Origin: Gammaproteobacteria bacterium
Lineage (GTDB): Bacteria; Pseudomonadota; Gammaproteobacteria; Eutrophobiales; Eutrophobiaceae
DNA length: 64,000 bases
Reading direction: 5' to 3'
Assembly: GCA_963422205.2 (NCBI GenBank)
Contig: CAXMWX010000005.1
Coordinates: 128,001 to 192,000 of the forward strand
A model generated the notes under the pieces. That model was given only the letters and a program-made list of their open reading frames with translations, did no database searches and was not told the origin of the DNA. Shown here piece by piece: positions 4,950 through 42,937 of this stretch. A program made the translations under genes and the position numbers. The first letter of the stretch is position 1; each line of letters opens with the position of its first letter.

Positions 4950-5384
4950 CTACGGCGCTTCTGCTAAGCCCGCCCTCTGCTCGATAGCATCCAGCAAGCG
5001 GGCGCGCACCGGCTTGACATCCACCACCGGGGACTGCCGTAAGGTACTGACCTCGGCGGCGGTGTAAGGCGTAAAATCCGCCGGTAATTCGGCTTCGCTG
5101 AAATTCACCAACAACCAGTTCATCACATCGGCCAGTTCCTGATCTGTGACCGGCGCACCGGCCACCCCGGGAACCTGGACAATGAACTCCCGGCCACCTG
5201 GCACATGCAGAAAATTACCCACGAAGCCGTTCAGCTTCGGCACGGCACCTTGCGCGCCAGCACCATCGGCCAGGTGACAGCCCTGGCAGTTGAGCATGTA
5301 ATTCTGGCGTGCCAGCCGGGTGTTATACTCTGCTGCCATCGCCATGCTGCTGAGCAGGAGCAGAAAAAAAAACAGTCGGCGCAT
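4950..5384 (-). CDS. Periplasmic monoheme cytochrome c
   Basis: Signal peptide MRRLFFFLLLLSSMAMAA and a single CQGCH heme motif; start reassigned to 5384, just after the light-chain stop. Confidence 0.9.
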   Translation of the reverse strand: MRRLFFFLLLLSSMAMAAEYNTRLARQNYMLNCQGCHLADGAGAQGAVPKLNGFVGNFLHVPGGREFIVQVPGVAGAPVTDQELADVMNWLLVNFSEAELPADFTPYTAAEVSTLRQSPVVDVKPVRARLLDAIEQRAGLAEAP

Positions 5385-5391
5385 AGGCTGA

Positions 5392-5916
5392 TTACTTAAC
5401 CGCCACACCCAGGATGATATTGACCGTGCAGTGATAGGCCGCGCTCTTGGTGCCCAGACACCAGTTGTAATCATTTGAGGTATGCGGGCGATAGGTCGGG
5501 CGGTCGGCCTCGTTACGATTACAAAAACAATTACCGCAGGATTCCTTGGCGCAGCAATCGTTATAAGAGATGATGTAATCCTTGCCATCACCGGGGTTGG
5601 TGCAGGTGCCTATCCAGGTAATCGGCGACATCTCCGTGCCAGGCGGACAGCTTGTCACCGAGCCACCACAGCAGGAGCAGAGAAAACCATCAACGGCGCA
5701 GTTGCGCCAATACTCACAGGTGGCTGGATCACCCGGATCCTCACCCTCGGCGGGCAGGGTCAGCGGCGGGCTATCGGCGGCACGGGCTACGGGCAGCAGC
5801 GGCAGCAGCGAGCCGCCCACGATCAGCCGGCCCAGGTTGCCGAGAAACCCCCGGCGGGATGAGGTTTTCGCCACATCACGGGAGATGCGCTCAGTGAATG
5901 TATCCAACCATTTCAT
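5392..5916 (-). CDS. mauA: TTQ amine dehydrogenase light chain, copy 1 (aromatic amine dehydrogenase-like)
   Basis: Tat motif SRRGFL; Cys-rich; both TTQ Trp motifs present (TWIGTC, DYNWCLG). Confidence 0.93.
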   Translation of the reverse strand: MKWLDTFTERISRDVAKTSSRRGFLGNLGRLIVGGSLLPLLPVARAADSPPLTLPAEGEDPGDPATCEYWRNCAVDGFLCSCCGGSVTSCPPGTEMSPITWIGTCTNPGDGKDYIISYNDCCAKESCGNCFCNRNEADRPTYRPHTSNDYNWCLGTKSAAYHCTVNIILGVAVK

Positions 5917-5937
5917 TATGCTTCTTTTCCTGATAGC

Positions 5938-7089
5938 TTACGGTGAGGCGTACACCAGCAAGGGGCCGGCACGATAAAAGTCATCAAGCGTACGTATTTG
6001 GCTGCCGGTAATCGCATCATAAATCTCCAGCCCCATTTCAATGTTGGTGGCAATGATCTTGGGCTTATCGCCCCGGGTAATATCAAAAGCGATGGCGGGT
6101 GATTGCAGCACGATCCGGCTGATGCGTTTTTTATCTTGCACCTCATAGACCCAGATTTCACTGCCAGGTTCTTTATGGCTGCCTTCATACCCATCCTTGT
6201 GCATCAACACATAGATAGCCTCATTTGCAGTGGCCGCCGGCCAGGCACCGCCGGGACGCCAGTTGGCCTGTTGATCACCGCCCGTGACCAGCGGCCATTT
6301 ATCACCCGGCACAGCCACGGCAGCGGATAAATCAAGCTCCTGTATATTGCCGGTAAACGTGGGAAAATAGGCTATGTTGTTCATGATGGCCGGCTTTTCA
6401 AACAAGGCATCGGCATCAACGTTGAAAAATTTTGCTACCCGTTCAGAGCCTGTTACCTGGCCCTGGCTGTCCAGCTGGTAGGACACCATAGAGCCATCAC
6501 TGCACAGCGAACTAAAGCCGCGCCGGCCGGTGGGGTAAATACCGGCACAGGTGGGCAGCGGTATCGTGTTGACGATTTTTCTTTTGTCTGTATCCATCAC
6601 GCCAATCGCCGTGGCCGGGGAGAATTTGTAAAACAGCAGGAAACGATCATCAGCGATTAGGCGCATGGTGTATTTACTGGGCAGCATCTCCGCCCGTTTG
6701 CCATCTGTTATTATCACCTCATCGATCGGGCTCAACGTGCGTTTATCATAAATCGTGATGACATCGGTGCGCTCGCCACGATGACCGCGGGAATAGAAAT
6801 TCTCGCCCACATAGAACTCCGGCTTGCTGTGTGCGCTGGCAAAAAAACTGATATAAGAGGAGTTCACCATGCCTTTGTAGAAATCCTTCGCCGTCTCGCC
6901 TGCGATGTCCATGAGGATATACTTGCCGGAACTCATGTGCATAAAAGACACATCATGCACAAACACCCAGCTATCAGGATACTCGGCGGGCAGGGTTTCA
7001 ACTGCTCCCAGTTTATCCTGGGGCAACTCTGCCAGCACAGCAACGCCGGGTATTCCCAAAACAAACACGAGTAATATTTTTTTCAACAT
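5938..7089 (-). CDS. mauB: TTQ amine dehydrogenase heavy chain, copy 1
   Basis: Signal peptide; YSRGHRGERTDVITIYD, WRPGG and SHKEPGSEIWVY beta-propeller motifs. Confidence 0.92.
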   Translation of the reverse strand: MLKKILLVFVLGIPGVAVLAELPQDKLGAVETLPAEYPDSWVFVHDVSFMHMSSGKYILMDIAGETAKDFYKGMVNSSYISFFASAHSKPEFYVGENFYSRGHRGERTDVITIYDKRTLSPIDEVIITDGKRAEMLPSKYTMRLIADDRFLLFYKFSPATAIGVMDTDKRKIVNTIPLPTCAGIYPTGRRGFSSLCSDGSMVSYQLDSQGQVTGSERVAKFFNVDADALFEKPAIMNNIAYFPTFTGNIQELDLSAAVAVPGDKWPLVTGGDQQANWRPGGAWPAATANEAIYVLMHKDGYEGSHKEPGSEIWVYEVQDKKRISRIVLQSPAIAFDITRGDKPKIIATNIEMGLEIYDAITGSQIRTLDDFYRAGPLLVYASP

Positions 7090-7241
7090 GGCCTATCCTG
7101 TCTCTGATTCACCTGATAAAAATACCTGCTGCCTTAAAGCCCTAAGAATGTTCAACACCTGCCTGGCATTTTATACCGAAACCAGATCAAAAGTCCCATA
7201 GAATTATGTGCTTTAGCATTTAAGTCACCTGGCATGACAGA

Positions 7242-8957
7242 CTAGCGCGCTATCCGCCCATGAACAAGCTCGCCTTCAAAAAAAGTCAAGTCAACTTTTG
7301 TATCGGCTATCTCATCAACCGCTATGCGGAACAGGTTTTTTTGCAACACAATCATATTTGCCTCTTTGCCAACCTCAATCGAACCAAGCCGCCCGTCAAG
7401 GCGCATTGCACGCGCCCCGTTTAAAGTAAATATTTTCAGCGCCTGTTCCAGGGTCACCGCCTGTTCATGCCAAAGACTGCCCGGCACTTTTTCGTAAGGA
7501 TCATGACGGGTCACCATCGCCTCAATACCCACCCAGGGATTGGCACTGGGCACAGCAGCAGGCCAGTCTGAACCGGCGATGATGATCGCCCGCTCACGCA
7601 ACAAGTCTTTTGTCGGCCAGTAATGCGCGCCCCGCTCGCCGACTGCGATCATAATCGCGTTGATGATCGATGAGGGATGCCACAGATAGGGAGAGAAATC
7701 AGGTGCTGCATTCAATGCGGCAAACCTCGGCAGATCGGCAGGGCTGATATAACCGGCGTGCGCCAGTTCAAACATCAGCCCGCTGTTACCATTGCTGCGA
7801 CGCACCCGCTCAATGGCATTTAATGTGGTATGCACCGAGCCATCGCCAGCGGTATGTATCTTGACGGTAAACCCGGCCTTGTCCAGGGTCTGCAAGTCTG
7901 TTGTCAGCATATCCTCTGTCAAGTGCATACTGCCAGTGTAATCAGCACCATGTTTATCGTCAGGCAGGTAAGGGGTTAGCATCTTTGCCGTGCGGGAAGG
8001 CGTAGGTACGCCATCCATGAAGATTTTGATAAACGCCGTATGCACATGAGGTGATTGATACTGCGCCCGTTTCTGTGTGTAAGCATCGACATCCAGCGGG
8101 ACAGCCCTTGCTCCATAAGGTGTCTCCAGGCTGGTTGCGATATTTAATTTTAGTTTTCCATCACGTTCAAGTTCATGATAAGCCTGCAAGGCGATATCCG
8201 GTGTTCTTGCTTCTTTTATGCCAGTGATGCCATAGGCCAGTAACATGTCCTGCACATATAAAATCGCCTTCGTTGCTTTTGCTTTTGTCGGCACCGGTAA
8301 ACGTCGATCAATATTAATGGCCGCTGTTTCCAGTAAAATACCGTTTGGCACCTGCGTTCCTTCCTCACGTACAATAGTGCCGCCTTCAGGATCGACCGAT
8401 TCGGCATTGATGGAGAAATGCTCGAGTGCTTTGGTATTTAACCAGGCATTGTGACTGGCATCATCTTTAAGGTAGATATATTTATTCGCCGAGACTTCAT
8501 CCAGGAATTGGCGCGGCGACTCTATAGGATTATCTTCAAAGAAACTGCTACCCCACTGACCGCCAATGATCCAGTCACCCTGATCTGGATCAGCCACACA
8601 TGCCGCTATTTTTTCCTTGATTTCAGCAGGCCCTGCGGTAAATGAAAAATTACATTCATACAGGTCTTTCACTCCCCCCATAAAGGGATGTATGTGAGCA
8701 TCATTTATCCCTGGCATAAGCATGCGACCATCAAGATCGATCAGCCTCGTATCAGCACCAGCCATCTTTAAGATGGCCTTATCATCGCCCACTGCGGATA
8801 TTTTATTTTTCGTAACAGCGACTGCCTCGGCCCATTTTTGACTGTCATTGACAGTATATATGGCACCGTTATGCAGGATAATATCCGGTGCTTCAACAGC
8901 CCTGGCAGTTGCTGTGAAAATCAACAAAGCAATGATTAAGTTATATCTGGATAGCAT
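7242..8957 (-). CDS. Secreted metal-dependent amidohydrolase (Amidohydro_3, YtcJ/NfdA-like)
   Basis: Signal peptide; DAHIH, IKIFMDG, KIHTAGD and GSDWP motifs. Confidence 0.9.
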   Translation of the reverse strand: MLSRYNLIIALLIFTATARAVEAPDIILHNGAIYTVNDSQKWAEAVAVTKNKISAVGDDKAILKMAGADTRLIDLDGRMLMPGINDAHIHPFMGGVKDLYECNFSFTAGPAEIKEKIAACVADPDQGDWIIGGQWGSSFFEDNPIESPRQFLDEVSANKYIYLKDDASHNAWLNTKALEHFSINAESVDPEGGTIVREEGTQVPNGILLETAAINIDRRLPVPTKAKATKAILYVQDMLLAYGITGIKEARTPDIALQAYHELERDGKLKLNIATSLETPYGARAVPLDVDAYTQKRAQYQSPHVHTAFIKIFMDGVPTPSRTAKMLTPYLPDDKHGADYTGSMHLTEDMLTTDLQTLDKAGFTVKIHTAGDGSVHTTLNAIERVRRSNGNSGLMFELAHAGYISPADLPRFAALNAAPDFSPYLWHPSSIINAIMIAVGERGAHYWPTKDLLRERAIIIAGSDWPAAVPSANPWVGIEAMVTRHDPYEKVPGSLWHEQAVTLEQALKIFTLNGARAMRLDGRLGSIEVGKEANMIVLQKNLFRIAVDEIADTKVDLTFFEGELVHGRIAR

Positions 8958-10399
8958 TGATTATCACTCCTTATATCCTGTTCGATTGGGTATAAATCAC
9001 AAAAACGGGTGGCTTCCTGGAACGCATAGGCCAGTTGTAAAACGCCTAATTCATCCCGAGGTTTGCCAACAATCTGTAGACCGACGGGTAACCCGTTACG
9101 GCTAAATCCGGCAGGAACCGAAACAGCCGGCAAGCCAGGCACACTAATATAATAACAGGCACGCATCCAATCAATATACGTTGTCATCTCTATATTATTT
9201 ATTTTTACAGGGTACTCAAGATCGATACTGAATGGTTCTACTTGGGTAACAGGCAGCAGCAGATAATCGTATTCCTGCATGAATTCCACCACCTGTAAAT
9301 ATAACCGCGTGCGTTTTCTATGGGCGCTCGCCAAGTCTTCAGCGCTGAGTTTCTGCCCCTGCAAAATCTCATCCTGCAAAACCGGCTTCATCAGGTTTTG
9401 TTTATCAGCGAACAGTCTGCCCAGCGTTGCCGCATACGAATAAGATCGCAATGTCTTGAATATCACATCGGCATCAGAGAAATCCGGTATCGCCAATTCG
9501 ACCGGCATGCCCATGAGAGAGAAATATTTGATACTCTCTTCCAGGACTGCAATGATTTCCGATTGCACCGGGATTTGCTTGCCAAAATCCGGACTGAACG
9601 CTATCTTCCTGCCAGAGAAATCTGTCTCAAGGCTTTGCTTAAAAACCGAACCAAGGGCATCAATCGCAATCGGACTTCGGCTATCCGGGCCGGCGATCAC
9701 ACTAAGAAATAGAGCAACATCTTCCACGGTTCGAGCCATCGGCCCTTCCACACCCAGTGTGAACCAACCGAGTTCATTCGGCCAACCAGGTATGCGGCCC
9801 GGTGCAGGACGCAGGCCAACCACATTACAAAAACTGGCCGGGTTTCGCAGCGAACCGCCCATGTCGCTGCCATCGGCCAAACTCACCATGCCCGCCGCCA
9901 GGGCCGCCGCCGCACCGCCGCTACTGCCGCCCGCGGTCAATGCCATGTTATACGGGTTTAATGTCGTACCAAAAATTTTATTAAAGGTATGCGAGCCGGC
10001 GCCAAATTCCGGCGTGTTGGTCTTACCGATACTGATAGCACCCGCCGCTCGCATCCGCTGCACCAGCAGAGAGTCAGTATCAGGTATGTTATCTTGATAA
10101 ATCAGCGAACCAAACGTTGTTCGCATACCCCTGGTCAAGGCCATATCCTTATGTGCAACGGGCAGACCAAATAAAGCCGGCAGGTCTGTGTCCTTCTGCC
10201 GCAGTGCATCCATTTTATGTGCCTGTGCCAGAGACTGTTCCGCATCCAGCGTCACGATGGCATTAATCTTAGGGTTACAGGCGTCAATTCTGGCCAAGCT
10301 TGCCTGCATCAATTCCACGCAACTCAATTCACCTGCCCGCAGTAAGGCGACCAACTCCGTTGCCGTTTTGTAGTGTAGCTCGGTTGCCTCAGTCAGCAT
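8936..10399 (-). CDS. Amidase (amidase-signature family)
   Basis: Ser-cisSer-Lys motifs: VAHKD, GGSSGG, GSDMGGSLRNPA; no signal peptide. Confidence 0.93.
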   Translation of the reverse strand: MLTEATELHYKTATELVALLRAGELSCVELMQASLARIDACNPKINAIVTLDAEQSLAQAHKMDALRQKDTDLPALFGLPVAHKDMALTRGMRTTFGSLIYQDNIPDTDSLLVQRMRAAGAISIGKTNTPEFGAGSHTFNKIFGTTLNPYNMALTAGGSSGGAAAALAAGMVSLADGSDMGGSLRNPASFCNVVGLRPAPGRIPGWPNELGWFTLGVEGPMARTVEDVALFLSVIAGPDSRSPIAIDALGSVFKQSLETDFSGRKIAFSPDFGKQIPVQSEIIAVLEESIKYFSLMGMPVELAIPDFSDADVIFKTLRSYSYAATLGRLFADKQNLMKPVLQDEILQGQKLSAEDLASAHRKRTRLYLQVVEFMQEYDYLLLPVTQVEPFSIDLEYPVKINNIEMTTYIDWMRACYYISVPGLPAVSVPAGFSRNGLPVGLQIVGKPRDELGVLQLAYAFQEATRFCDLYPIEQDIRSDNQCYPDIT

Positions 10400-10471
10400 G
10401 GTAACAGGGGGCTCGGCATAACGAGAGACAAGATACTGAAATGCTTGTCATGCGGATGGTATGTCAAATAT

Positions 10472-12889
10472 CTAAAAACGGTAATCAACGCTGATACCGT
10501 ATGTCCTCGGCATACCGTTGGTACGGACGAAGGTGAAGTTGCCCCCGTCGAATGCGCTCAAAAAATAATCCCGATTAAAGATATTCCTCGCCCACAGAGT
10601 CGCACGCCATTTATCATTCGTGGTGCTGGTTAGCGATAAACGTGCGTTAGCCAGCAGATAAGAATGCTTGGCGGCCTCGCCAGCGAGCACACCGCCGCTG
10701 GTCTCATCGCGAAAGATGGCATCAAACGAAGGCGTCAACACATACTGGTTGGCAATCATGACATCGTATGTCGACCCCAGATTGACCGACCACCTGGGCG
10801 CATTGTCCAACTCAACACCAGCGGCATCAAATAATACCGTGTTGGGGAAGCTGCTTTGCTGACTATCAACGGCCAGGTACTCCTCGATTTCCGTATTCAG
10901 ATAGACCATGCTTGCATTTACGTTCCAGTTCTCCGTTAGCCGAGTATTCACCTCGGTTTCCAGACCAAGGATTTCCGACTCCGGTATGTTGGTCAAGCCT
11001 GAGATATTGCCCACCGGGGTCACGGCATCGTTGCGCTCCTGTTTGTCTTTATAATCATAATAAAAAACCGACGTATTCCACTGCACCCGGCCATCAGCCA
11101 GTGTCGCCTTAAAACCGATCTCATAAGCGATCAGCTTTTCAGGCGTGTAGGGTAATAACTGGCTATGAGTGTTGGAGTTGGCACCATTGAAACCGCCCGA
11201 CTTAAACCCCCTGGAAATATTGGCAAACAGCAGAATATCATCAGCCGGTGAGTAATCAACGCCAAACTTCCACATCCACTCACTCGCCGATATTTTCCTT
11301 GCAAAGGGCGCATACTGTCCGACCATCGGGGTGCCGGGGATATCATTGAAGGTACCGCAGCCATTGGGCGCTAACGGATTAACCGCAGGCAGGCCGTTGG
11401 GAAAATTAAACCCATCGTTTAATAAACCGTTGGCCGTTATCCTGCCCGGCCCGTTGATAACCGTATTCAGAAAGACGTGCAGCGGTGCGCCGCTAAGGCC
11501 GGCAATATCCGTTGGCGTTGCATCATTGGTGCAACCGCTCCACTGCCTGTCTTCGCTGGTGTAACGGGCGCCCGCTGTCACGCCCCACTTATCGGTCACA
11601 TCCCATTCGACATGGGCGAACACGGCAATGGATTGCACATCCTGTTCATAGTTAGTATCAAGCTGATTGATACCGAAACGGCCTTCGCCAAAGAAATAAT
11701 TATAATCCTCAGCCAGATCATCCTCTGAATAATAAAGCCCGGCCAGCCACTCGATATCCTCACCCACGGTGGATGATACCCGCAACTCCTGCGAGAAGAC
11801 GTCAATATCGGTCACATTAATATTGCTGGAATCAAGCAAGGCGATCCCATCCCAGTCATTCGCCTCAGTACGATCAAAGTTATCATAGCTGGTGATGGAG
11901 ACGAACTCAAAATCACGATAATTCCAGGCCAGCCTGGCAGAGAGACCCAGCAACTGGTTATCACGTTTCGGCCTTAGCACATTACCCGCCCCGTTAGTCC
12001 AGTCAGCCGCTGTGTTGTCATTGGTCATATAGGTGACAAAGCGCTCCAACTGTCCCATGTTATTGGCCGTTGCACGCCTTGTCGGAAAAGGCTGGCCTAT
12101 GGTCGTGCCATTGACCGGTGTATTGGCAATACCATCTGAACGATCATCATTGTAGCGCACATAAAAATGTGCCGTGAGATCCGAGGTCACATCCCACGCT
12201 AACTGACCACGAACGGCATAGGCGTCCCTCATCCCCAGCTTATCCCCGGGTCTGGTCAGGCTTTCCTGCCAGCCTTCCCAGGCCCGTACCGTCTTGAATG
12301 CGGCCCGGGCACGCACCGCATCAGACAGGGGGCCACTGACGTAGCCCTCTGCATCCAGAGTTTCGTAATTGCCATAGCTTAATGACACACCTGCCTCGAG
12401 TTCATCGGTGGGTTTTCTGCTGATGAAGTGAACCTGCCCGGCGGTCGTATTGCGCCCGTATAAATCACCTTGCGGCCCCTTCAAAATCTCAACCCGCTCA
12501 ACATCAAAATACTGCCCGCTCGCCATCACCGGATAGGGCAAAGACACCTCATCAACATAAATCCCAACCGTTGAGGAGGCAGAAGTTGAATAGTCGTTAA
12601 AACCCACGCCACGGATAGACCAGGATGAGGTGCCCGTGCCAGCCGTCTGGTTGACCACCAGGCCGGGGACGATACTTGACAAGTCCTCCGCTGATCTGAT
12701 GCCATAGCTGGCGATGGATTCTGATGAGAAAGCCGATATCGCCAGTGGCACATCATTGATGCCCTGCTCCCTCTTCTGGGCGGTCACGATGACCTCTTCA
12801 AGCATGACGGGCCCCGAAACCTGCGCCAGGCTGTCGGCACTTAATGTGATTAACATAATAAAAACGTTGGCTAAATTAACAATCCTCAT
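10472..12889 (-). CDS. TonB-dependent receptor 1
   Basis: LEEVIVTAQKRE, ERVEILKGPQGDLYGRNTTAG and C-terminal PRTYGISVDYRF. Confidence 0.95.
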   Translation of the reverse strand: MRIVNLANVFIMLITLSADSLAQVSGPVMLEEVIVTAQKREQGINDVPLAISAFSSESIASYGIRSAEDLSSIVPGLVVNQTAGTGTSSWSIRGVGFNDYSTSASSTVGIYVDEVSLPYPVMASGQYFDVERVEILKGPQGDLYGRNTTAGQVHFISRKPTDELEAGVSLSYGNYETLDAEGYVSGPLSDAVRARAAFKTVRAWEGWQESLTRPGDKLGMRDAYAVRGQLAWDVTSDLTAHFYVRYNDDRSDGIANTPVNGTTIGQPFPTRRATANNMGQLERFVTYMTNDNTAADWTNGAGNVLRPKRDNQLLGLSARLAWNYRDFEFVSITSYDNFDRTEANDWDGIALLDSSNINVTDIDVFSQELRVSSTVGEDIEWLAGLYYSEDDLAEDYNYFFGEGRFGINQLDTNYEQDVQSIAVFAHVEWDVTDKWGVTAGARYTSEDRQWSGCTNDATPTDIAGLSGAPLHVFLNTVINGPGRITANGLLNDGFNFPNGLPAVNPLAPNGCGTFNDIPGTPMVGQYAPFARKISASEWMWKFGVDYSPADDILLFANISRGFKSGGFNGANSNTHSQLLPYTPEKLIAYEIGFKATLADGRVQWNTSVFYYDYKDKQERNDAVTPVGNISGLTNIPESEILGLETEVNTRLTENWNVNASMVYLNTEIEEYLAVDSQQSSFPNTVLFDAAGVELDNAPRWSVNLGSTYDVMIANQYVLTPSFDAIFRDETSGGVLAGEAAKHSYLLANARLSLTSTTNDKWRATLWARNIFNRDYFLSAFDGGNFTFVRTNGMPRTYGISVDYRF

Positions 12890-13000
12890 CAGTCTCCCCT
12901 CGGATACACGTCAAGTCACTGCTGTTCAGGATATTTATCTGTATAATCTTTCACGGCAATCGTACAGATTCAGGGTTTGTATTATACATATACTGCCTGT

Positions 13001-13032
13001 TATGTATACTAAAATAACTATATTGTATACGA
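13001..13032. promoter_or_regulatory. Two TGTATAC boxes, candidate GntR/FadR operators
   Basis: atgtatacta and ttgtatacga, with cores 21 bp apart, in the AT-rich divergent gap between the receptor and GntR genes. Confidence 0.6.
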
Positions 13033-13076
13033 AAAGTCATAAATATGAATAATATTAGTTGGTTAGGTCTACATAA

Positions 13077-13721
13077 ATGCTGCAATCAGCCCGCCTGAAG
13101 GCGATTCTGGAGCGTGAAATCGTGACTGGTGAGATCAAGCCGGGGCAGCGTCTGGATGAGACAGAGCTGGCGAATCGTTACGGTGTTTCACGTACCCCGG
13201 TGCGAGAAGCCCTGATGATCCTGGAAAGTATTAACTTAGTTGAGCGACGCCCACGGCAGGGCGCCATCGTCAAAGGCGTGACCTTGTCTCGCCTGGTGCA
13301 GTTGATGGAGGCATTACGTGAGCTTGAAGTCATCTGTGGTCGGCTAACAACGCAACGTGCCGGGCCGAAGGAAATCGCCGCCCTGGAGATGGGATTTAAG
13401 GAATATAAACACGCCTTGCAGACCAACGACAGGGATCTGGTTTATGATAAGGTGATTCAATTTCATCGCACCTTGTTCACGACTTCCGGGAATGATGAGC
13501 TGGCGGAAATCACCGAGCAGATTGCCGAGCGGATGGAGCCATTTTTACGCGCACAACACCACAGTGAAAACTTGAATGATGCAGAGTTTTGCGAAGCACA
13601 TGAAAAAATCATGGCGGCAATAAAAGCAGGCGCCGAGGAAGAAACCGCCAGACTGCTGCGTCAGATCGTGCAGATAGATACCGAAATACTGACCGATTTT
13701 ACTGCATCACAAAAAAACTAA
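13077..13721 (+). CDS. GntR (FadR/FCD) family regulator
   Basis: PGQRLDETELANRYGVSRTPVREAL HTH plus an FCD-like C-terminus. Confidence 0.93.
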   Translation: MLQSARLKAILEREIVTGEIKPGQRLDETELANRYGVSRTPVREALMILESINLVERRPRQGAIVKGVTLSRLVQLMEALRELEVICGRLTTQRAGPKEIAALEMGFKEYKHALQTNDRDLVYDKVIQFHRTLFTTSGNDELAEITEQIAERMEPFLRAQHHSENLNDAEFCEAHEKIMAAIKAGAEEETARLLRQIVQIDTEILTDFTASQKN

Positions 13722-13728
13722 ACCAACC

Positions 13729-15084
13729 ATGGCAGGTATTGATAAAATCACAGCGCTCACTATCCGACTGCTTGATCGTCATCTACCTGAACCCTTCACA
13801 TTTGCCCTGCTGATAACAGGCATCACCCTGACCCTGGTCATGCTGTTTACTGACACATCGTTCATCCTGGCCGTTCAGTTCTGGGGTAATGGCCTGAGTA
13901 TGTTGTTAGAGTTCATCGCACAAATGGCCCTGATGGTATTCCTTTCCTACACGCTGGCCAATTTAGGCCCGATGAGGAGACTGCTGGAAAAACTGTCAAG
14001 TATCCCAAACTCGGCGACCCAGGCTTATCTATTCATCGTCTATGTGGTTGGTATAATCAGCTTGATTGCCTGGCCTGCCGGCCTGATATGTGGCGGTATA
14101 TTAGCCCGACATACAGCAATGACGGCAAAACAGAGAGACATCAAAATTCACTATCCCTTACTCGCTGGTGCGGCCTATGGCGGCTTCGTTGTGTGGCACA
14201 TGGGCTACTCGGCCAGCGCCCCTTTATTTGTCGCCACCAAAGGCAATGCCATGCAGGAACAACTGGGCGAGGTGATACCGATTACAGAGACAATAGCCAC
14301 CACCTGGAACATAACGCTGGCCTTGTTGACTCTGACTGTCGTTGCCTTCACGTCCGTATTTCTGCACCCCAAAAACCCCCGGCTTATCGAAGAAATTGAA
14401 CAAAAATCGAGCGTGCAAGAGGCACAATCGGTTGTCATCACAAGCCGATATGGCCTGGCCGCCATGCTTGAACACCACAGGCTGATCACCCTGTCAACGG
14501 GCATATTGCTGCTTATCTATGTTGGTCATTGGTTCCTCAGCAAAGGGCTGCAATTAAACTTGAACATCGTCAACTGGTCGCTGTTAGCGCTCATCCTGCT
14601 GTGTTGTAAATCGGCGCATGAACTTAACAATACGATGATAACAGGCGGCAAAGTCATGGTGCCGATCATACAACAATATCCCCTGTATGCCGGTATCATG
14701 GGCGTGATGTTAAGCAGTGGTCTGGTGCCAACAATAGCGGAGGGGTTTATTCGCATTGCTGCGGCAGAGACACTGCCGTTTATCTGTTTCCTTGTTGCGG
14801 CTATTGTCAATCTCTTTATCCCTTCCGGTGGCGCCCAGTGGACGGTGCAGGGGCCGATTTTTATTGAAGCGGCCACACGGCTTGGCGTGGACTATGAACT
14901 CATTGTCATGAGTGTGGCCTATGGGGATCAGTGGACAAATTTAATTCACCCTTTCAGTGTCATTATCCTGTTGATTTTGACCGGGCTGAAATTAAAACAA
15001 GTCTTGAGTTATTCCGCAGTATTATTTATTGCCGCCGGTCTGCCGCTCGGCTCAGGATTACTGTTATTACCGCACCTGCTATGA
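13729..15084 (+). CDS. Short-chain fatty acid transporter (AtoE family)
   Basis: Multi-TM; HYPLL..AY.GFVVWHMG.S.SAPL, NLFIPSGGAQW and AYGDQWTN motifs. Confidence 0.88.
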   Translation: MAGIDKITALTIRLLDRHLPEPFTFALLITGITLTLVMLFTDTSFILAVQFWGNGLSMLLEFIAQMALMVFLSYTLANLGPMRRLLEKLSSIPNSATQAYLFIVYVVGIISLIAWPAGLICGGILARHTAMTAKQRDIKIHYPLLAGAAYGGFVVWHMGYSASAPLFVATKGNAMQEQLGEVIPITETIATTWNITLALLTLTVVAFTSVFLHPKNPRLIEEIEQKSSVQEAQSVVITSRYGLAAMLEHHRLITLSTGILLLIYVGHWFLSKGLQLNLNIVNWSLLALILLCCKSAHELNNTMITGGKVMVPIIQQYPLYAGIMGVMLSSGLVPTIAEGFIRIAAAETLPFICFLVAAIVNLFIPSGGAQWTVQGPIFIEAATRLGVDYELIVMSVAYGDQWTNLIHPFSVIILLILTGLKLKQVLSYSAVLFIAAGLPLGSGLLLLPHLL

Positions 15085-15139: not shown

Positions 15140-15487
15140 ATGTCCGAAGAGGCGGTAAAAGCAGTTATTGAAGCGTATGTCGCTGCCTGTCAGGCGGCTG
15201 ATGTGAAGCGGCTACAGGCGGTATTTCACCCCGGGGCGAATATGATGGGCTACATGCAGGGCCGGTTTTTGACAGGCGGTCCGAAACCCTTCTTCGATTC
15301 TGTTACCAGCAGCACCCCCTGCACCTATGATTACAAAATAAGCGAAATCAGCGTAGCAGGCGATGTGGGCTCTGCCCGCCTGGATGAGGAGGGCTATATG
15401 GGCAGCAACTTCACCGATTATTTCCAGCTTGCCCGAACGGAAGATGGCTGGCAGATCGTCAGCAAGGTATTTCATGTCAGGCAATAA
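15140..15487 (+). CDS. NTF2-like / putative lumazine-binding family protein
   Basis: 115 aa; AVFHPGA..FTDYFQLARTEDGWQIVSKVF; AGGAG RBS. Confidence 0.8.
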   Translation: MSEEAVKAVIEAYVAACQAADVKRLQAVFHPGANMMGYMQGRFLTGGPKPFFDSVTSSTPCTYDYKISEISVAGDVGSARLDEEGYMGSNFTDYFQLARTEDGWQIVSKVFHVRQ

Positions 15488-15526
15488 TATCCTGTCATTA
15501 TCAGCGCCTGTTGATACCATAGGCGT

Positions 15527-17002
15527 ATGATCACGCCCCGCATTGCCACCGCTGTCCTGCTCACGCATGGTGAGGATCCACAGCGTGAGGTCTATCTGGT
15601 CAAGCGCTCCAGCCAGCTCAAGGCGTTCGCCGGGCAGTGGGCGTTCCCCGGCGGCACTGTGGATGCAATCGATGAGCAGCATGCTGGCTCACAACATCAC
15701 ACCCTGTTACGTTGCGCCATGAGAGAAATCCTGGAAGAGACCGGCCTGCTGCTGATGCCCGATGCACACCCGCCGGCCGATCTGACAACTATCCGGCAGG
15801 CGTTGCTGGATGATGGCGAATCGCCACAATGGGCGGCACTCATTGACTCCATCGAGGTGGAACGAGCCGGCTTTAACCCCGTCTGTGAGTTCACCACACC
15901 GCCGATATCGAAGGTACGTTTTCAGACCCAGTTCATGCAGATACAACTGAACGCCTCGGCTGAGCCGACGATCATCCCTGGCGAGCTGGATGAGGGGGCT
16001 TTCTTCTCAGCCGACCAGGCGATCAAACTATGGGAGGCCGGGGAGATGGCCATCTCCCCGCCGGTGTTGTTTTTACTCAAGCTGATGCAGGGCCGGCCGC
16101 TGGCTGAATTTATTGCCCTGGCCAGTAAAGCCACCGCCGATTTTGAACAGGGACGGCTACCGCCGGGCTGCTTCTCCCCCGGCATCTTCCTGGCACCGCT
16201 AAAGACCCCGACCCTGCCACCGGCGATAACGACCAACACCCTGATCATCGGTAATGAGCAACGCTATATCGTTGATCCGGCCACGCCGGATGCCGATGAG
16301 CAGCAAAAGCTCATGCGGCAACTGGATGACTATCTCGCCCAGGGCAAACAACTCAAGGCCATCCTCTTAACGCATCATCACCCGGATCACATCGGTGCAG
16401 TCAATGTGATCAGCCAACATTATCAACTGCCGGTCAGGGCGCATCCTGAGACTTACCGCCGCATTCCTGAAGGCTACATCAAGGGCGAGCCGCTGTCCGA
16501 TGGCGAGCACATCGCCCTGGGGGTTGCCCCGGATGGCAGTGATGACTGGCAACTGGAGGCCATATACACCCCCGGCCATGCGGTTGATCATATCTGTTTT
16601 ATTGAAAACCGCTATCATGCGGCCATCGTTGGTGATATGTTATCTACCCTGTCCACCATCGTGATCGATCCACCCGAAGGCCACATGCGTACCTACCTCA
16701 ATAGCCTGCATCTGTTACAACAACGCGAAATCAAGGCCCTGTTCCCGGCCCACGGCCATGTCTACAGCGAAGGGGGGGCGCTGATCAGCGAATACATACA
16801 ACACCGGGCAGACCGGGAGCAGGCCATCGTTAAGGCACTTGGCAAGGAGCCGCAATCACTCCCAGCACTGGTTGTGAAAATATACCACGATATGCCGCCG
16901 CAAGCGCATCACATCGCCTCACGCTCGCTGCTGGCCGGGCTGATCAAACTACAGGAAGATGGCGTATGCAAGGAGCAGGCAGGTAACTGGTGCCGCCGGT
17001 AG
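15527..17002 (+). CDS. Nudix hydrolase - metallo-beta-lactamase (LACTB2-like) fusion
   Basis: FPGGTVD...AMREILEETG Nudix box; THHHPDH, TPGH, GD and PAHG MBL motifs; wHTH-like tail. Confidence 0.85.
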   Translation: MITPRIATAVLLTHGEDPQREVYLVKRSSQLKAFAGQWAFPGGTVDAIDEQHAGSQHHTLLRCAMREILEETGLLLMPDAHPPADLTTIRQALLDDGESPQWAALIDSIEVERAGFNPVCEFTTPPISKVRFQTQFMQIQLNASAEPTIIPGELDEGAFFSADQAIKLWEAGEMAISPPVLFLLKLMQGRPLAEFIALASKATADFEQGRLPPGCFSPGIFLAPLKTPTLPPAITTNTLIIGNEQRYIVDPATPDADEQQKLMRQLDDYLAQGKQLKAILLTHHHPDHIGAVNVISQHYQLPVRAHPETYRRIPEGYIKGEPLSDGEHIALGVAPDGSDDWQLEAIYTPGHAVDHICFIENRYHAAIVGDMLSTLSTIVIDPPEGHMRTYLNSLHLLQQREIKALFPAHGHVYSEGGALISEYIQHRADREQAIVKALGKEPQSLPALVVKIYHDMPPQAHHIASRSLLAGLIKLQEDGVCKEQAGNWCRR

Positions 17003-17070
17003 ATTAGGCCAGATCAGCACCACCTTACAAGCCGACCGGCGCCAGGGCAGCATCAGCCGTTGCCTGGGCT

Positions 17071-17388
17071 TCATTGAGGCAACAGCCGCTCTTCGATCTG
17101 GATGACAGGTTCGATATTAGTGAAGTTGGGAATATCGCCCATGATCTCTTCGGCATGGGGGCCGAAGGCTGTTTCGAACTCATCAACGCTGTCAAACCAG
17201 AGGCTGGCAACGGTGACATAAGGCACCGGCGCACCCGCCGCACCGCTCAAGCCCTTACAGACTTCAAGCTGCCTGATAGCACCGCCTAGCCTTTTCTGCA
17301 CCAGCGGCATGTGTGTTTGCAGGTAATACTCATAATCAAAATTACCGCCGTCTTGTCTGGGGTACATCACGTTCACTCTTATCATCAT
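17071..17388 (-). CDS. EthD family protein
   Basis: VMYP..FDYEYYLQTHMPLV...DIPNFTNIEPVIQI pattern. Confidence 0.85.
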   Translation of the reverse strand: MMIRVNVMYPRQDGGNFDYEYYLQTHMPLVQKRLGGAIRQLEVCKGLSGAAGAPVPYVTVASLWFDSVDEFETAFGPHAEEIMGDIPNFTNIEPVIQIEERLLPQ

Positions 17389-17582
17389 AACTCCTTAACA
17401 TGAAAAATTATTGCCCGGCACCGATCACCAGAAGGCTGACTGTGCTGGATGTCGTGATACAGTACCAGTTTTTCACGGCGGTTGCGTCGTTTTTTGCTGC
17501 ATGGCAGATTAAGAGGGGCTTGGCCTCGCTCAAGCACAGCCGCTATAATGCCCTGCAATCGCACGGTGCTGGATACAACACC

Positions 17583-18224
17583 ATGAAACTGTACACCTAT
17601 TATCGAAGCTCTGCCGCCTACCGAGTGAGGATCGCACTCAACCTGAAACGAATAGCCTGTGAATATGTCTACCTTGACTTAAAAAATGCGGCACACAAGA
17701 CGAAGAGTTTCGCCGCCATCAATCCACAGCAGTTTGTCCCGACCCTGCTGGTCAATGGTAACGGCATGACACAATCCTTGAGCATCATCCGCTATCTTGA
17801 TACGACCTGCCCCGAACCCGGACTGTACGGCGATGATGCCATGCAGACAGCACAGATAGAATCCGCTTCTCAGTTAATCGCCTGTGATATCCATCCCTTA
17901 AATAACCTGCGTGTGCTGCAATACCTGAAAAATCAGACCGGGCTGCAACCGACCGAGGTGGATGACTGGTATCGACACTGGATCACGGAAGGCTTCAAGG
18001 TGCTTGAGCAGATTGTGCAGCCAGCCAACACCGACACGCCTTTCTGCTTCGCCAACCGGGTGACGCTGGCCGATGTCTGCCTGGCCCCACAGATGTATAA
18101 CGCCCGGCGCTTTGCGGTCAATCTCTCTCCTTACCCCAGGCTGGTGGCGATAGATGCCCATCTCATGAGTCTGGCTGAATTCTCTGATGCCGCCCCGGAA
18201 AATCAACCGGACTGTGCATCATAA
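17583..18224 (+). CDS. maiA: Maleylacetoacetate isomerase (GST zeta)
   Basis: MKLYTYYRSSAAYRVRIALNLK and DIHPLNNLRVL; start reassigned to 17583. Confidence 0.93.
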   Translation: MKLYTYYRSSAAYRVRIALNLKRIACEYVYLDLKNAAHKTKSFAAINPQQFVPTLLVNGNGMTQSLSIIRYLDTTCPEPGLYGDDAMQTAQIESASQLIACDIHPLNNLRVLQYLKNQTGLQPTEVDDWYRHWITEGFKVLEQIVQPANTDTPFCFANRVTLADVCLAPQMYNARRFAVNLSPYPRLVAIDAHLMSLAEFSDAAPENQPDCAS

Positions 18225-18253
18225 AACCACCGCCGGCCGAATCCCTTATCACC

Positions 18254-19747
18254 ATGAACCTGTTCGATCGGTTTGCCAGCGCCTATGCCAAAGATAAGGC
18301 AAGACCCGTCTTCCTGCATGAGGGCATTTCATTTCATGAGATAGAAAAACGCTCCGCCCAATATGCCAACCTGATAGGCGAGTTGGGGATACACACCGGC
18401 GATCGTGTTTGCATCTGTACCGAGAAGTGTATCGAATGGCTGCTTTTGTATCTGGGTTGCCTTCGCAGCGGCGCCATAGTCCAGCCGCTCAACCCCGACT
18501 TCACGCAAACTGAAATACGATACTATCTCAACGATGCCAGACCATTAGTGATTATCTGTAAACAAAGCCGGTATGGCGAGCTATCTGAATGGGCATCAGG
18601 CGATGGAATCCGTACCGTCCTGACACTGGATGCAGATAACAGCGGCAGCCTGGTCAGGCAAAGCCAGCAGTGCAGGGATACCTTCACCACGACTACAAGC
18701 CAGGCGGACGATCTGGCGGCACTGCTGTACTCTTCCGGTACAACTGGCAAACCCAAGGGCATCCCCATCAGCCACGGCAATTTGATCGCCAATGCAACCG
18801 CCTTGGTAGCCGCCTGGGGTATGAGTGCCGATGATGTCTTGTTACATGCCCTGCCGCTGTTCCATGTACATGGTTTATTCATCGCCCTGGGCACGGCGCT
18901 CGCCGCCGGCAGCCAGATCATCCTGCTGCACAAATTTACTGTCGATGGTGTGCTTCAGGCAATGCCCGATGCCAGCGTGTTTATGGCGGTGCCGACTTAC
19001 TACACCCGCCTGCTGGCCGATGTGCGTTTTGATAAAACATGCTGTCAGCAGATCCGTTTGTTCACCTGTGGCTCTGCGCCCTTGCTGGCGGCAACCTTTG
19101 CCGAGATAGCACAACGCACCGGCCATCAGCCACTGGAGCGTTACGGCATGACCGAAGCGGCCGGGGTGATCACCAGCAACGCCTTAAACGGCGAGCGCCG
19201 GGCAGGCTCAGTCGGCCAGCCGCTGCCGGGGTTGTCCATCAAAATCATTGATGATCATAATGCACCAGTGAGACCGGGCGAGAGGGGCGAGCTTGTCGTC
19301 AAAGGTTCGAGTATTTTCTCCGGTTACTGGCAGCGCCCGGAGGCCACCGCCGCCGCCTTCACCGAAGCGGGTTATTTTCGTACCGGCGATATCGCAAGGA
19401 TAAGCGAAGATGGCCATATTCAGATCGTTGGCAGATGTACGGAGCTGATCATCTCTGCTGGTGAGAACATCTACCCTAAGGAAATCGAAGCGTGCCTGAA
19501 TAACATAAGCGGCATCATCGAATCTGCCGTCATTGGAATCCCGCATACCGATCTCGGCGAGCAGGTCTGTGCCATCATCGTCACTGAAGAAGGTTTTACA
19601 TGCACCGAAGAGGATTTAAAAGCGGCATTAAAACAACGACTCGCCCGCTTCAAAGTACCACGCACGATCCACACCATCGAGCGCTTGCCAAGAAATGCGA
19701 TGGGCAAGGTGCAGAAGCACATCTTGCGTAGGACGTATACGGCTTGA
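18254..19747 (+). CDS. Acyl-CoA synthetase, malonyl-CoA synthetase (MatB)-like
   Basis: YSSGTTGKPKG, HALPLFHVHGL, ERYGMTE and PRNAMGKVQK motifs. Confidence 0.85.
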   Translation: MNLFDRFASAYAKDKARPVFLHEGISFHEIEKRSAQYANLIGELGIHTGDRVCICTEKCIEWLLLYLGCLRSGAIVQPLNPDFTQTEIRYYLNDARPLVIICKQSRYGELSEWASGDGIRTVLTLDADNSGSLVRQSQQCRDTFTTTTSQADDLAALLYSSGTTGKPKGIPISHGNLIANATALVAAWGMSADDVLLHALPLFHVHGLFIALGTALAAGSQIILLHKFTVDGVLQAMPDASVFMAVPTYYTRLLADVRFDKTCCQQIRLFTCGSAPLLAATFAEIAQRTGHQPLERYGMTEAAGVITSNALNGERRAGSVGQPLPGLSIKIIDDHNAPVRPGERGELVVKGSSIFSGYWQRPEATAAAFTEAGYFRTGDIARISEDGHIQIVGRCTELIISAGENIYPKEIEACLNNISGIIESAVIGIPHTDLGEQVCAIIVTEEGFTCTEEDLKAALKQRLARFKVPRTIHTIERLPRNAMGKVQKHILRRTYTA

Positions 19748-19806: not shown

Positions 19807-20538
19807 CTAATACAACACCCAGGCCAGGTAGAGCAGCTTGATTGCAAACGCCGTCATCGCCAGCCTGAAGAAGAAGCGGAATTTATTCTCAGAGAGACAA
19901 TGCAGGAGCTGCCGCCCGGCTATGGCGCCGGGGATCCCGGCCAGGATGGCGGCAATGATCACGACCAGCCATTCGCTGTAGTCAAAGCCCTGCAACGTAT
20001 AGGCACTGATCTTTAACAGGTTCATGAATAACAATCCGGCGGCCAGTGTGGCCACGATCTTAAAACGTGACATGGCCTGGCGAAGCATGATCGGCTGAAA
20101 CAAACCGCCGAAAGAAAACAGCGTGGAAAAAAATGAATGCAGCACACCCACACAGAAAAACGGCCTGGGTATAGTGATATGCCATGTGATCGCCGGCACC
20201 CAGGTGGCCAGCAGGATGAACAGGGCAATGACCAAGGCGATCAGAAATGCGGGCAGATGAAAGTACAGCGGCGATGCACTGAATGCACCGATGATGCTGC
20301 CAGAGGCAAACGGGATGACGATCCGCCATTGAATATCTCTCCAGAAGGCAAACGTGCGCCCTAATGACAGGCCCAGCATCATGGGGCTGTGCAGCGGCAC
20401 CACATACTGCATCGGTAATACATTCGACAGCACGGCAATCATGATAAACCCGCCACCCACCGCAAATGCGGAGCTTACCAGGGCGGCGAGAAAAGCGGAG
20501 ATGATGATCAGTATGGCAAGCGGATCAGTCAGCGGCAT
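19807..20538 (-). CDS. TauE/SafE (TSUP) family membrane transporter, in frame with the upstream isomerase
   Basis: About 8 hydrophobic segments and AVGGGFIMI; internal ATG at 20538. Confidence 0.8.
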   Translation of the reverse strand: MPLTDPLAILIIISAFLAALVSSAFAVGGGFIMIAVLSNVLPMQYVVPLHSPMMLGLSLGRTFAFWRDIQWRIVIPFASGSIIGAFSASPLYFHLPAFLIALVIALFILLATWVPAITWHITIPRPFFCVGVLHSFFSTLFSFGGLFQPIMLRQAMSRFKIVATLAAGLLFMNLLKISAYTLQGFDYSEWLVVIIAAILAGIPGAIAGRQLLHCLSENKFRFFFRLAMTAFAIKLLYLAWVLY

Positions 20539-20943
20539 GGTGTGCCGTGCCTTATGTTTTATCTTTAAGGTGCTGAGGTGGATGTTGTTTTGTTTGTAGC
20601 TGAGCACCGGATCGGCCTCATACATATAATAAGAGATGGCGAGTAACCTGGAGTTATCGCTATCGGCAAGACATGCCGCCAGCGTGTCAAACACCTGCTG
20701 ACCGGCGGCTTTTTTCACCGCCAGCGAGCGCCCGCCACCCAGGATGCCGGTCAAATGCACAAAGGCATAATCCGCCTTGCCATCAGCGATCAGATAATCC
20801 TCATAGCAAACTGCCCTGAGACGAATGCCCGCCAAAGGAAATAGGCCGGTGGCAACCGCTGCATCACGTAATTCTTTCAGGATATACGCCACATCAATGT
20901 CGTCCTCCAGGTTGGCCGAGTATTCCAGGATAAAATGCGGCAT
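20539..20943 (-). CDS. hpaF: 5-carboxymethyl-2-hydroxymuconate isomerase (no stop; reads through into the TSUP gene)
   Basis: MPHFILEYSANL (catalytic Pro), GLFPLAGIRLRA, AFVH and KQNNIH motifs; ATG overlaps the upstream TGA. Confidence 0.88.
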
Positions 20944-21764: not shown

Positions 21765-21768
21765 GCCC

Positions 21769-22119
21769 TCACCTGTGCTTGCCCGACTGTTCTATTTCCT
21801 GCACGCCGGGCGGCAGGGTTTCACCCAGGGTGGCATAGAGGCCGGCCCGTGGCTGACCGTATCTCTCCAGCCCCTCGCGCAACATATGCAGATAATCAAA
21901 CCAGGCAATCTGATGCAGTGCGGCATAGTGCATCAACAACTGCCCGTTCACACCCAACACATACAACAAGCCGATATCCGGTTGCTTGATGGCCGCCAGT
22001 TCTTCATCAGTCATTGGATAGGCTTCCAATAACGTATCCCGATCGTTCTCAAAACAGGCGCGCACCTTAGGGTCGCGATTTAATTCATAGATCAACTTTT
22101 GGACGTAGTACAGGCTCAT
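21769..22119 (-). CDS. LigA-like dioxygenase alpha subunit
   Basis: 116 aa helical protein with RACFEND..LLEAYPMTDEELAAI..DIGLLYVLGVN, directly upstream of the LigB-like gene. Confidence 0.75.
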   Translation of the reverse strand: MSLYYVQKLIYELNRDPKVRACFENDRDTLLEAYPMTDEELAAIKQPDIGLLYVLGVNGQLLMHYAALHQIAWFDYLHMLREGLERYGQPRAGLYATLGETLPPGVQEIEQSGKHR

Positions 22120-22122
22120 GGC

Positions 22123-25185: not shown

Positions 25186-25187
25186 GC

Positions 25188-25988: not shown

Positions 25989-25996
25989 GGCTGAGG

Positions 25997-42925: not shown

Positions 42926-42937
42926 GATTATTCGCTC

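Follow-up and report, generated by a model that had tools for sequence, protein, structure and literature searches.

Does a secreted amide hydrolase supply a periplasmic amine dehydrogenase with its substrate? The question is raised by a run of genes at positions 4950-15084 of a 64,000-nt stretch of gammaproteobacterial DNA (contig CAXMWX010000005.1, positions 128,001-192,000; the whole stretch is called the window here, and all coordinates count from its first letter). In this run a tryptophan tryptophylquinone (TTQ) amine dehydrogenase and a cytochrome c lie beside two amide hydrolases and a TonB-dependent receptor, and the original prediction read them as one system for scavenging N-acylated amines. 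All eight genes that it named were found where it had placed them, both in the list of open reading frames (ORFs) and in family scans. The run is a composite of two modules. Module 1 (4950-7089) comprises mauB, mauA and the cytochrome c gene on the minus strand, whereas module 2 (7242-15084) is a block of ~8 kb in which the TonB receptor, an amidase and an Amidohydro_3 protein are divergent from a GntR regulator and an SCFA_trans carrier. We put the probability that the modules act in series, with the secreted hydrolase feeding the TTQ dehydrogenase, at about one in two. Such a flow is plausible, with recurrence and co-occurrence in its favour, though it stays short of proof and is no general rule. 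The parts of the run are as follows.

4950..5384, minus strand: monohaem cytochrome c with a general secretory (Sec) leader (PF00034, 26.5 bits; CQGCH motif)
5392..5916, minus strand: TTQ dehydrogenase small subunit (mauA/aauA-like) with the twin-arginine translocation (Tat) motif SRRGFLG (PF02975, 167.6 bits)
5938..7089, minus strand: TTQ dehydrogenase large subunit (mauB/aauB-like) with a Sec leader (PF06433, 135 bits)
7090..7241, no strand: 152-bp spacer from the hydrolase module to mauB, left junction of the inserted block (sequence, end of synteny)
7242..8957, minus strand: secreted YtcJ-like binuclear metallo-amidohydrolase (Amidohydro_3) with a Sec leader, ...ATARA/VE (PF07969, 272.1 bits)
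8936..10399, minus strand: amidase-signature amidase without a signal peptide (PF01425, 332.9 bits; NF005686, 510.3 against a cut-off of 465)
10472..12889, minus strand: TonB-dependent outer-membrane receptor (type A) with a Sec leader (plug PF07715, 54.5 bits; barrel PF00593, 119.5 bits)
12890..13076, no strand: divergent control region of 187 bp (TGTATAC boxes, palindrome, promoter-like hexamers)
13077..13721, plus strand: GntR/FCD-family regulator (PF00392, 67.4 bits; PF07729, 68.5 bits)
13729..15084, plus strand: SCFA_trans (AtoE-like) inner-membrane carrier (PF02667, 313 bits)

Sequence comparisons support well the assignment of the module 1 enzyme as aromatic amine dehydrogenase (AADH)-like rather than methylamine dehydrogenase (MADH). 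The best solved relative of the large subunit is AADH (E value 6.7e-41, versus 3.1e-33 for the best MADH), and the small subunit aligned with the AADH beta chain (6.3e-46) with both TTQ tryptophans, the aspartate and all cysteines in register. W101, W152, D120 and the cysteines were invariant in an alignment of 13 small-subunit sequences; we take these Trp, Asp and Cys residues to have TTQ-forming, active-site and disulfide roles. Neither subunit reached the MADH equivalog cut-offs (TIGR02659, 170 versus 196.85; TIGR02658, 146.8 versus 454.45). The mauB of this operon (cluster A) is 75% identical to that of a same-genus genome and 42% identical to that of a second TTQ cluster in the window, cluster B.

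The original prediction named an (aryl)alkylamine as the substrate, and the AADH-like subunits and their surroundings are in keeping with this. Such a substrate is likely because the TTQ genes sit among homoprotocatechuate, homogentisate, aldehyde-oxidising and aromatic decarboxylase genes; module 1 lies within a 45-kb aromatic-amine, homoprotocatechuate and homogentisate island. An alternative is that the amides are aliphatic (acetylated polyamines or other alkylamines) and the cluster A enzyme is an alkylamine dehydrogenase. The small subunit does match one MADH strongly (3c75, at 2e-48), and relatives carry a Hist_deacetyl gene, resembling acetylpolyamine amidohydrolases, in the slot of the hydrolases. 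We nevertheless consider this reading very unlikely: AADH is the nearer match for the large subunit and for the mature small subunit, neither of them reaches the MADH cut-offs, paaK and paaZ stand by the orthologous operon in relatives, and the island holds hpc and hmg genes.

The cytochrome c encoded at 4950-5384 is probably the electron acceptor of the TTQ dehydrogenase or dehydrogenases, judging by gene order. The ORF as listed (4950-5591) overlaps mauA, and the true start is placed at 5384 because the signal-peptide start MRRLFFF lies there. A genome search found this gene in a single copy. A homologue follows mauA in 9 of 15 TTQ loci taken from genomes. We also scanned metagenomes with the small-subunit alignment, which gave at least 588 relatives; 80 loci were kept, and all metagenome counts below refer to the 36 loci of 7 kb or more. 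The cytochrome homologue is present in 34 of these 36, in keeping with the partnership proposed in the original prediction. No amicyanin gene adjoins cluster A, and the whole genome gave a single, partial cupredoxin-like match, away from it.

The secreted Amidohydro_3 protein is plausibly an amine-releasing hydrolase, as had been predicted from its family; it carries a Sec leader, and the ligand set for a binuclear metal site (HxH, carboxylated Lys, His, His, Asp) is complete. The corresponding residues H88, H90, K311, H368, H400 and D464 were invariant in an alignment of 22 relatives, and the AlphaFold2 (AF2) model scored 93.1 for the confidence measure pLDDT. Foldseek placed it closest in the PDB to the uncharacterised structures 3icj and 3igh and then to generic amidohydrolases, and a sequence search of solved structures agreed. 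More than 1000 homologues (E of 1e-20 or better), named only 'amidohydrolase', 'YtcJ' or 'hypothetical', come from natural waters and sediments. The closest characterised relative is the hylA gene product, with 36% identity over 566 amino acids (aa); the hylA enzyme frees an aromatic amine. We identified hylA through the gene at locus L017, which five plasmid records match at 100% or 99.6% identity. PMC7039861 places hylA on four of those plasmids and on the WDL1 megaplasmid, and a table in a review (PMC8406775) gives HylA as a 56-kDa YtcJ-like linuron hydrolase. NfdA is mentioned in a passage of PMC13081902 as one of the few characterised PF07969 enzymes, and a reference title in the same paper has it releasing the amine from N-substituted formamides. 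Like HylA of Variovorax sp. WDL1 and NfdA of Arthrobacter pascens, the window protein is a YtcJ-like Amidohydro_3, and both known enzymes release an amine from an N-substituted carbonyl compound. Unlike them, it belongs to a large clade of secreted proteins of ~575 aa linked to a TonB receptor; the sequence comparison was with the hylA product.

The second hydrolase does not fit a wholly periplasmic system of the kind originally proposed. The signature amidase is assigned to the cytoplasm because it lacks a signal peptide. Its gene overlaps that of the Amidohydro_3 by 22 nt, and its sequence exceeds the cut-off of the NCBIfam model PRK07486/NF005686 and contains the stretches AHKD, GGSSGG and GGSLR, which we take to be the Lys, cis-Ser and Ser motifs of the amidase signature. 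Full-length solved relatives of the amidase include aryl acylamidase and urethanases. Together with the closeness to the phenylurea hydrolase HylA, this would suit a reading in which the substrates of both hydrolases are aryl-ureas, carbamates or anilides, like those of HylA, LibA, aryl acylamidase and urethanases. The products would then be anilines or ammonia, of no use to a TTQ dehydrogenase, and aromatic catabolism would be reached by way of ring-cleavage genes rather than mauBA. We regard this as unlikely. The window showed no genes of the aniline dioxygenase type, the Amidohydro_3 family is very large in natural waters and sediments, and the recurring neighbourhood with amine-oxidising enzymes would be left unexplained.

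Under the proposed route, the receptor would bring an amide across the outer membrane, and the secreted Amidohydro_3 would cleave it in the periplasm, freeing a primary amine for module 1. This amine would resemble phenylethylamine, tyramine or dopamine; the AADH-type enzyme would convert it to the aldehyde, with the module's monohaem cytochrome c taking up the electrons. After aldehyde oxidation, the product would be degraded by the island's homoprotocatechuate and homogentisate enzymes and by paa enzymes encoded elsewhere. The acid part may enter by the AtoE-like carrier and be activated by a nearby AMP-ligase, while the cytoplasmic amidase could handle a second amide bond or an amide that enters intact. 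Cluster A would borrow MauE and MauD from cluster B, the two modules would be co-transcribed, and the GntR protein would repress both divergent operons at the TGTATAC boxes. Our best guess for the substrate class is N-acyl, N-formyl or N-carbamoyl amides of phenethylamine- or tyramine-type amines; benzylamine is reportedly the product of NfdA. Phenethylamides and N-acetyltyramine are described as marine bacterial products, and we infer that these could match the candidate substrates.

Hydrolase and TTQ genes stand side by side in seven loci and in several gene orders: the window itself, L129, L130, L014, L030, L088 and L118. The order is Amidohydro_3-mauB-mauA-cytochrome in L129 and Amidohydro_3-unknown-flavin amine oxidase-mauB-mauA in L088. 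Longer arrays were found in L014 (receptor-Amidohydro_3-Amidohydro_3-AraC-Aldedh-mauBEDA-cytochrome), L030 (Aldedh-Amidohydro_3-pyrroloquinoline quinone (PQQ) dehydrogenase-mauBEDA-cytochrome) and L118 (mauD-mauA-cytochrome-cytochrome-AraC-receptor A-Amidohydro_3-amidase).

Within module 2, several pairings also recur. Thirteen Amidohydro_3 loci were taken from genome contigs (L037 and L016 share gene order, may be the same contig and were counted once). The type-A receptor adjoins the Amidohydro_3 in 7 of the 13 (L009-L015; 43-75% identity), as it does in L118, and an amidase homologue of 51-53% identity lies beside it in three (L012, L013 and L016). The conserved unit reaches past 15084, in that the Lumazine_bd_2-like and AMP-ligase genes found there recur next to hydrolases elsewhere (L011, L012, L013 and L016); beside the Amidohydro_3, the former was counted in 4/13 loci, the latter in 2/13 and SCFA_trans in 1/13, this last being L016, where a 52% identical carrier adjoins both the amidase and the Amidohydro_3. 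Among metagenome loci, an aldehyde dehydrogenase is present in 12 and an amidase homologue in two (L049 and L086). On the TTQ side, a type-B receptor adjoins the TTQ genes in L023 and is also present in L024 and L027, among the 15 genome loci. The type A receptor and that of cluster B share 30% identity.

The two genes also co-occur at the level of genomes. We used a class sample of 401 genomes, 400 of them scored for Amidohydro_3, with a cut-off at an E of 1e-80 or better, and a family sample of 126 genomes (the window's order consists of this single family). In the class sample the TTQ small subunit was found in 14 of the 401 genomes and the Amidohydro_3 in six, four of which hold mauA. With the window's own genome set aside, mauA was present in 3/5 Amidohydro_3 genomes versus 10/394 others (p = 2.6e-4, a value that ignores kinship). 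In the family sample 29 genomes have the Amidohydro_3 and 42 have mauA, and all 29 of the former also hold the TTQ small subunit. At the genus level, all six Amidohydro_3 genera fall among the 11 of 34 with mauA.

Comparison with a same-genus genome (L126) throws light on how the modules came together. There, paaZ, paaK, the cytochrome gene (62% identity), mauA (81%) and mauB (75%) stand together, and divergent from this mau operon lie a Hist_deacetyl gene and then Lumazine_bd_2-like, NUDIX-MBL and GST genes. Similarity at the DNA level is limited to window positions 5005-7002 and 15126-18156, from which it follows that an 8.1-kb block in the window replaces 1.4 kb with the deacetylase-like gene in the relative. 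The junctions lie within 7090-7241 on the left (synteny ends at 7002) and near 15126 on the right. GC content at third codon positions is 0.495 for the Amidohydro_3 gene and 0.525 for the other hydrolase gene, versus 0.60-0.70 for the island. On this comparison, the block is a predicted insertion in this lineage at the place of the deacetylase-like gene.

Different amide hydrolases occupy one slot beside the dehydrogenase. Deacetylase-like orthologues are divergent from mauB in L127 and L132 also, and a signature-amidase homologue heads the same downstream operon in L131. The deacetylase-like genes of L010 and L015 are 64% identical to the mauB-divergent one of the window's genus. In both of these loci, which come from metagenome-assembled genomes (15577-21650, minus strand), receptor A, the Amidohydro_3, an amidase paralogue (29%) and the Hist_deacetyl-like gene are co-oriented, which places three amide-hydrolase families in one operon. 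Additionally, L131 has four small co-oriented ORFs without a Pfam match (2035-4896, minus strand) between a TonB receptor and mauB-mauA.

Several observations weigh against a feeding link between the modules. The mau genes were found in the flanks of only 1/13 Amidohydro_3 loci (L014) and in 0/5 further loci from the class sample. Seen from the TTQ side, the Amidohydro_3 is present in 1/15 genome loci (L030) and 2/36 metagenome loci (L088 and L118). At L009, which carries the Amidohydro_3 orthologue nearest to that of the window (73%), the receptor is present but amidase and mau genes are missing from the surroundings. Within the family sample the genes are adjacent only in G406 and G409; in 12 genomes a single contig holds every copy, and there the closest two lie 63-1104 kb from each other, while in the other 14 the copies are spread over several contigs. 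Co-occurrence is itself confounded by phylogeny and lifestyle, because both genes mark versatile genera. The mauBA-cytochrome operon of the same-genus genome stands without the hydrolases, and the 152-bp spacer and the differing composition of the modules mean that separate transcription is possible. Furthermore, the amidase and the deacetylase-like protein have no leaders and so could not feed a periplasmic enzyme directly. The expected co-conservation of hydrolases and mauBA therefore stood in part: the genome-level co-occurrence and the seven juxtapositions agree with it, whereas the genes are separate in most loci and general co-location of the receptor-amidohydrolase-mauBA-cytochrome type was not found.

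These observations bring forward the main rival, namely that the modules are independent neighbours. In that case a mobile catabolic module for an unrelated amide would have come to lie beside a self-contained operon for phenylethylamine/tyramine dehydrogenation at the margin of a catabolic island, and no metabolite would be common to the two. We hold this to be possible, if somewhat doubtful. It would account for the absence of the block from the same-genus genome, its different composition, the spacer, the position of the nearest orthologue and the large distances in related genomes, and mobile or defence-like genes do flank the cluster at 0.4-4.3 kb. It does not sit well with the seven juxtapositions, which show several gene orders and come from different lineages, nor with co-occurrence in 29/29 family genomes and in 3/5 versus 10/394 class-sample genomes. 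Likewise, L088 has an Amidohydro_3 beside two different amine-oxidising enzymes, and three amide-hydrolase families have been placed in the same slot by mauBA.

Beyond the proposal that the secreted hydrolase feeds the dehydrogenase, we tentatively suggest a wider scheme, which is rather unlikely as a whole: that some Gammaproteobacteria scavenge N-acylated aromatic amines in the periplasm, among them the phenethylamides and N-acetyltyramine given off by marine bacteria as quorum-sensing antagonists. They would do so by TonB import, YtcJ-like deacylation and MauG-independent TTQ and cytochrome oxidation of the freed amine for energy, with interchangeable hydrolase cassettes (Amidohydro_3, signature amidase or deacetylase-like) set beside one and the same dehydrogenase operon. 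If the hydrolase does feed the dehydrogenase, this would give a first function to the very large secreted YtcJ-like clade, and N-acyl aralkylamine infochemicals would gain a defined sink.

The remaining parts of module 2 bear on import and control. The receptor has its signal peptide, plug and barrel all present, and among solved structures it matched only distant siderophore and haem receptors (E of 3e-15 or weaker). The carrier had been called an AtoE-like acid importer; membership of PF02667 holds, while the role is a family-level guess, with a TIGR00366 score of 307.8 versus a cut-off of 575.75. Two TGTATAC boxes do lie in the 187-bp divergent spacer, at 13003-13009 and 13024-13030 and 21 bp apart, as originally noted. 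The motif occurs seven times in the 64-kb window versus 3.78 expected, and none was found upstream of mauB or the amidase. The divergent spacer also holds an 11-bp palindrome, TGTATTATACA, near 12979 and promoter-like hexamers. The GntR/FCD domains go with palindromic GT..AC predicted operators in the regulator's own control region. No terminator-like site was found in the 152-bp spacer at 7090-7241. A scan of 4300-15600 gave 15 promoter-like and 8 terminator-like sites, versus 13.8 and 11.1 in shuffled sequences, and is uninformative for that spacer.

The TTQ genes of cluster A depend on other loci for maturation functions, or so the gene content suggests. None of mauE, mauD and mauG lies within 4950-15084. 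Cluster B, ~36 kb away, has its own TonB receptor at its head and the order receptor-mauB-mauE-mauD-mauA; its mauE and mauD (42938-44117) are, by whole-genome search, the sole mauE and the sole strong mauD of the genome, and it has no cytochrome c gene. The clusters are therefore complementary, the only mauE and strong mauD being in B and the only cytochrome copy in A. We rejected the possibility that they are recent duplicates, since their subunits are 66% and 42% identical and their receptors 30%. TTQ operons without mauED were also found in L022, L024, L027 and 11/36 metagenome loci. One genome, G361 (completeness 94%), has three TTQ small-subunit loci (L022, L027 and L035) and no MauD match at an E of 1e-20 or better, so mauED-less TTQ clusters may exist without MauD anywhere in the genome.

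A true MauG was not found in the window's genome, which is 97.97% complete (best TIGR03791 score 147.8 versus a cut-off of 443.85). The sole gene of the cytochrome c peroxidase (CCP)/MauG family encodes a 658-aa SCO1-dihaem fusion on another contig in an unrelated context (G000:C9:46992-48968; L001 532-2508). Upstream of it lies what, by eye, we take to be a possible selenium-binding-protein-like ORF, and on the opposite strand an ORF that presumably resembles sulfide:quinone reductase, likewise judged by eye. The absence of MauG and the proposed sharing of MauE and MauD in trans make this a convenient genome for asking how AADH-type TTQ matures.

The TTQ amine dehydrogenases of the textbooks come from a small number of soil and methylotroph strains. 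The cluster of Alcaligenes faecalis is reportedly aauBEDA with a downstream monohaem cytochrome gene, and azurin is said to be the electron acceptor of its AADH. The window resembles this system in the best solved subunit matches, in the cytochrome c gene after the small-subunit gene, in having no mauG in the cluster and in its aromatic context. In contrast to aau, mauE and mauD stand outside the operon and would be supplied from the second cluster, and the co-oriented genes upstream are those of a TonB receptor and two amide hydrolases; in place of azurin there is the one partial cupredoxin-like match elsewhere in the genome. With the mau clusters of Paracoccus and Methylobacterium the window shares the two subunit Pfam families and MauE- and MauD-type proteins in the genome, and it differs from them in subunits below the MADH cut-offs, the absence of MauG, the lack of an adjoining amicyanin gene and the aromatic context. 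Escherichia coli and Pseudomonas use tynA-feaB-hpa and paa routes for tyramine, dopamine and phenylethylamine. The predicted route is similar in its periplasmic oxidation of amine to aldehyde, its arylacetate step and its homoprotocatechuate or paa genes, which are present here; it differs in having a TTQ dehydrogenase and cytochrome c, not a copper amine oxidase, and in TonB uptake and the proposed upstream hydrolysis.

In our literature search we found no paper that joins TTQ or AADH genes with TonB receptors or amidohydrolases, in agreement with the earlier statement that a module of receptor, hydrolases and TTQ dehydrogenase was not known to be described. A TonB receptor gene is present in 18 of the 36 AADH-like metagenome loci and adjoins mauB in L023. 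It seems that such a gene beside a periplasmic amine dehydrogenase is common, and the search found no description of this arrangement. As far as that search shows, three points have yet to appear in print: that AADH-like clusters are common in environmental contigs (the at least 588 relatives), that half of the longer loci carry a TonB receptor, and that a subset is joined to secreted amide hydrolases.

The rest of the island, with cluster B, is laid out as follows; MBL, GST and PLP stand for metallo-beta-lactamase, glutathione S-transferase and pyridoxal phosphate, and AFOR names a family of aldehyde oxidoreductases.

15140..19747, plus strand: Lumazine_bd_2-like gene (15140), NUDIX-MBL fusion, GST-like gene and AMP-dependent ligase (18254) (Pfam)
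19807..31013, minus strand: homoprotocatechuate meta-cleavage genes, PLP decarboxylase and AFOR-type aldehyde oxidoreductase (Pfam)
38648..41594, plus strand: flavin adenine dinucleotide (FAD) aromatic hydroxylase and MBL-fold protein (Pfam)
42371..47626, minus strand: cluster B, with TonB receptor, mauB, mauE, mauD and mauA (profile searches)

A complete homoprotocatechuate meta-cleavage set lies between clusters A and B. This hpc set (19807-31013) encodes 5-carboxymethyl-2-hydroxymuconate isomerase (CHMI), a LigB-type dioxygenase, an aldehyde dehydrogenase, two FAA_hydrolase proteins, an HpcH aldolase and a hydratase-like protein. The PLP decarboxylase, the AFOR, HgmA (homogentisate dioxygenase), FAH (fumarylacetoacetase), 4-hydroxyphenylpyruvate dioxygenase (HPPD) and the FAD hydroxylase are also encoded between the clusters (19.8-41.6 kb), and the paa genes are on another contig of the same genome. 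This predicted content fits oxidation of tyramine-, dopamine- or phenylethylamine-type amines. Similarly, PaaK homologues of 65-80% identity adjoin AADH-like clusters in eight loci, the same-genus one included. Homologues (47-71%) of the FAD aromatic hydroxylase and MBL-fold pair follow mauBEDA-cytochrome in L025, L053, L063 and L125, and by this gene order the pair is a predicted conserved partner of AADH-like clusters.

Beside the cytochrome end of cluster A, positions 457-4294 (plus strand) hold PcfJ-like, WYL, GIY-YIG and PD-(D/E)XK genes of lower GC content; the same-genus genome has paaK and paaZ in their place. This stretch looks like the island edge or a mobile or defence insertion. 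Within the hpc set, a 388-aa ORF (19807-20973, minus strand) joins a CHMI domain (residues 12-132) to a TauE/SafE membrane domain (156-380). This ORF is an unusual fusion, or else a pair of genes has been merged in the reading. The AFOR-type aldehyde oxidoreductase is at 29268-31013 (minus strand), and a homologue of it (67%) adjoins an Amidohydro_3 in L038. Beyond cluster B lie TetR (47873-48550) and major facilitator superfamily (MFS; 48903-50288) genes, both on the plus strand, then, still in the same island as the AFOR, two multi-cluster ferredoxin-like proteins (50322-51843, minus strand) and a 1169-aa oxoacid:ferredoxin oxidoreductase-like protein (53239-56748, plus strand) with POR, TPP_enzyme_C and DUF6537 domains. 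Finally, three Amidohydro_3 homologues of 44% identity, all from one genus, each contain a single in-frame TAG (G452:C1:767229-768908, G442:C11:26370-28049 and G437:C83:6470-8125), which may mark a pseudogene common to them or a site of read-through.

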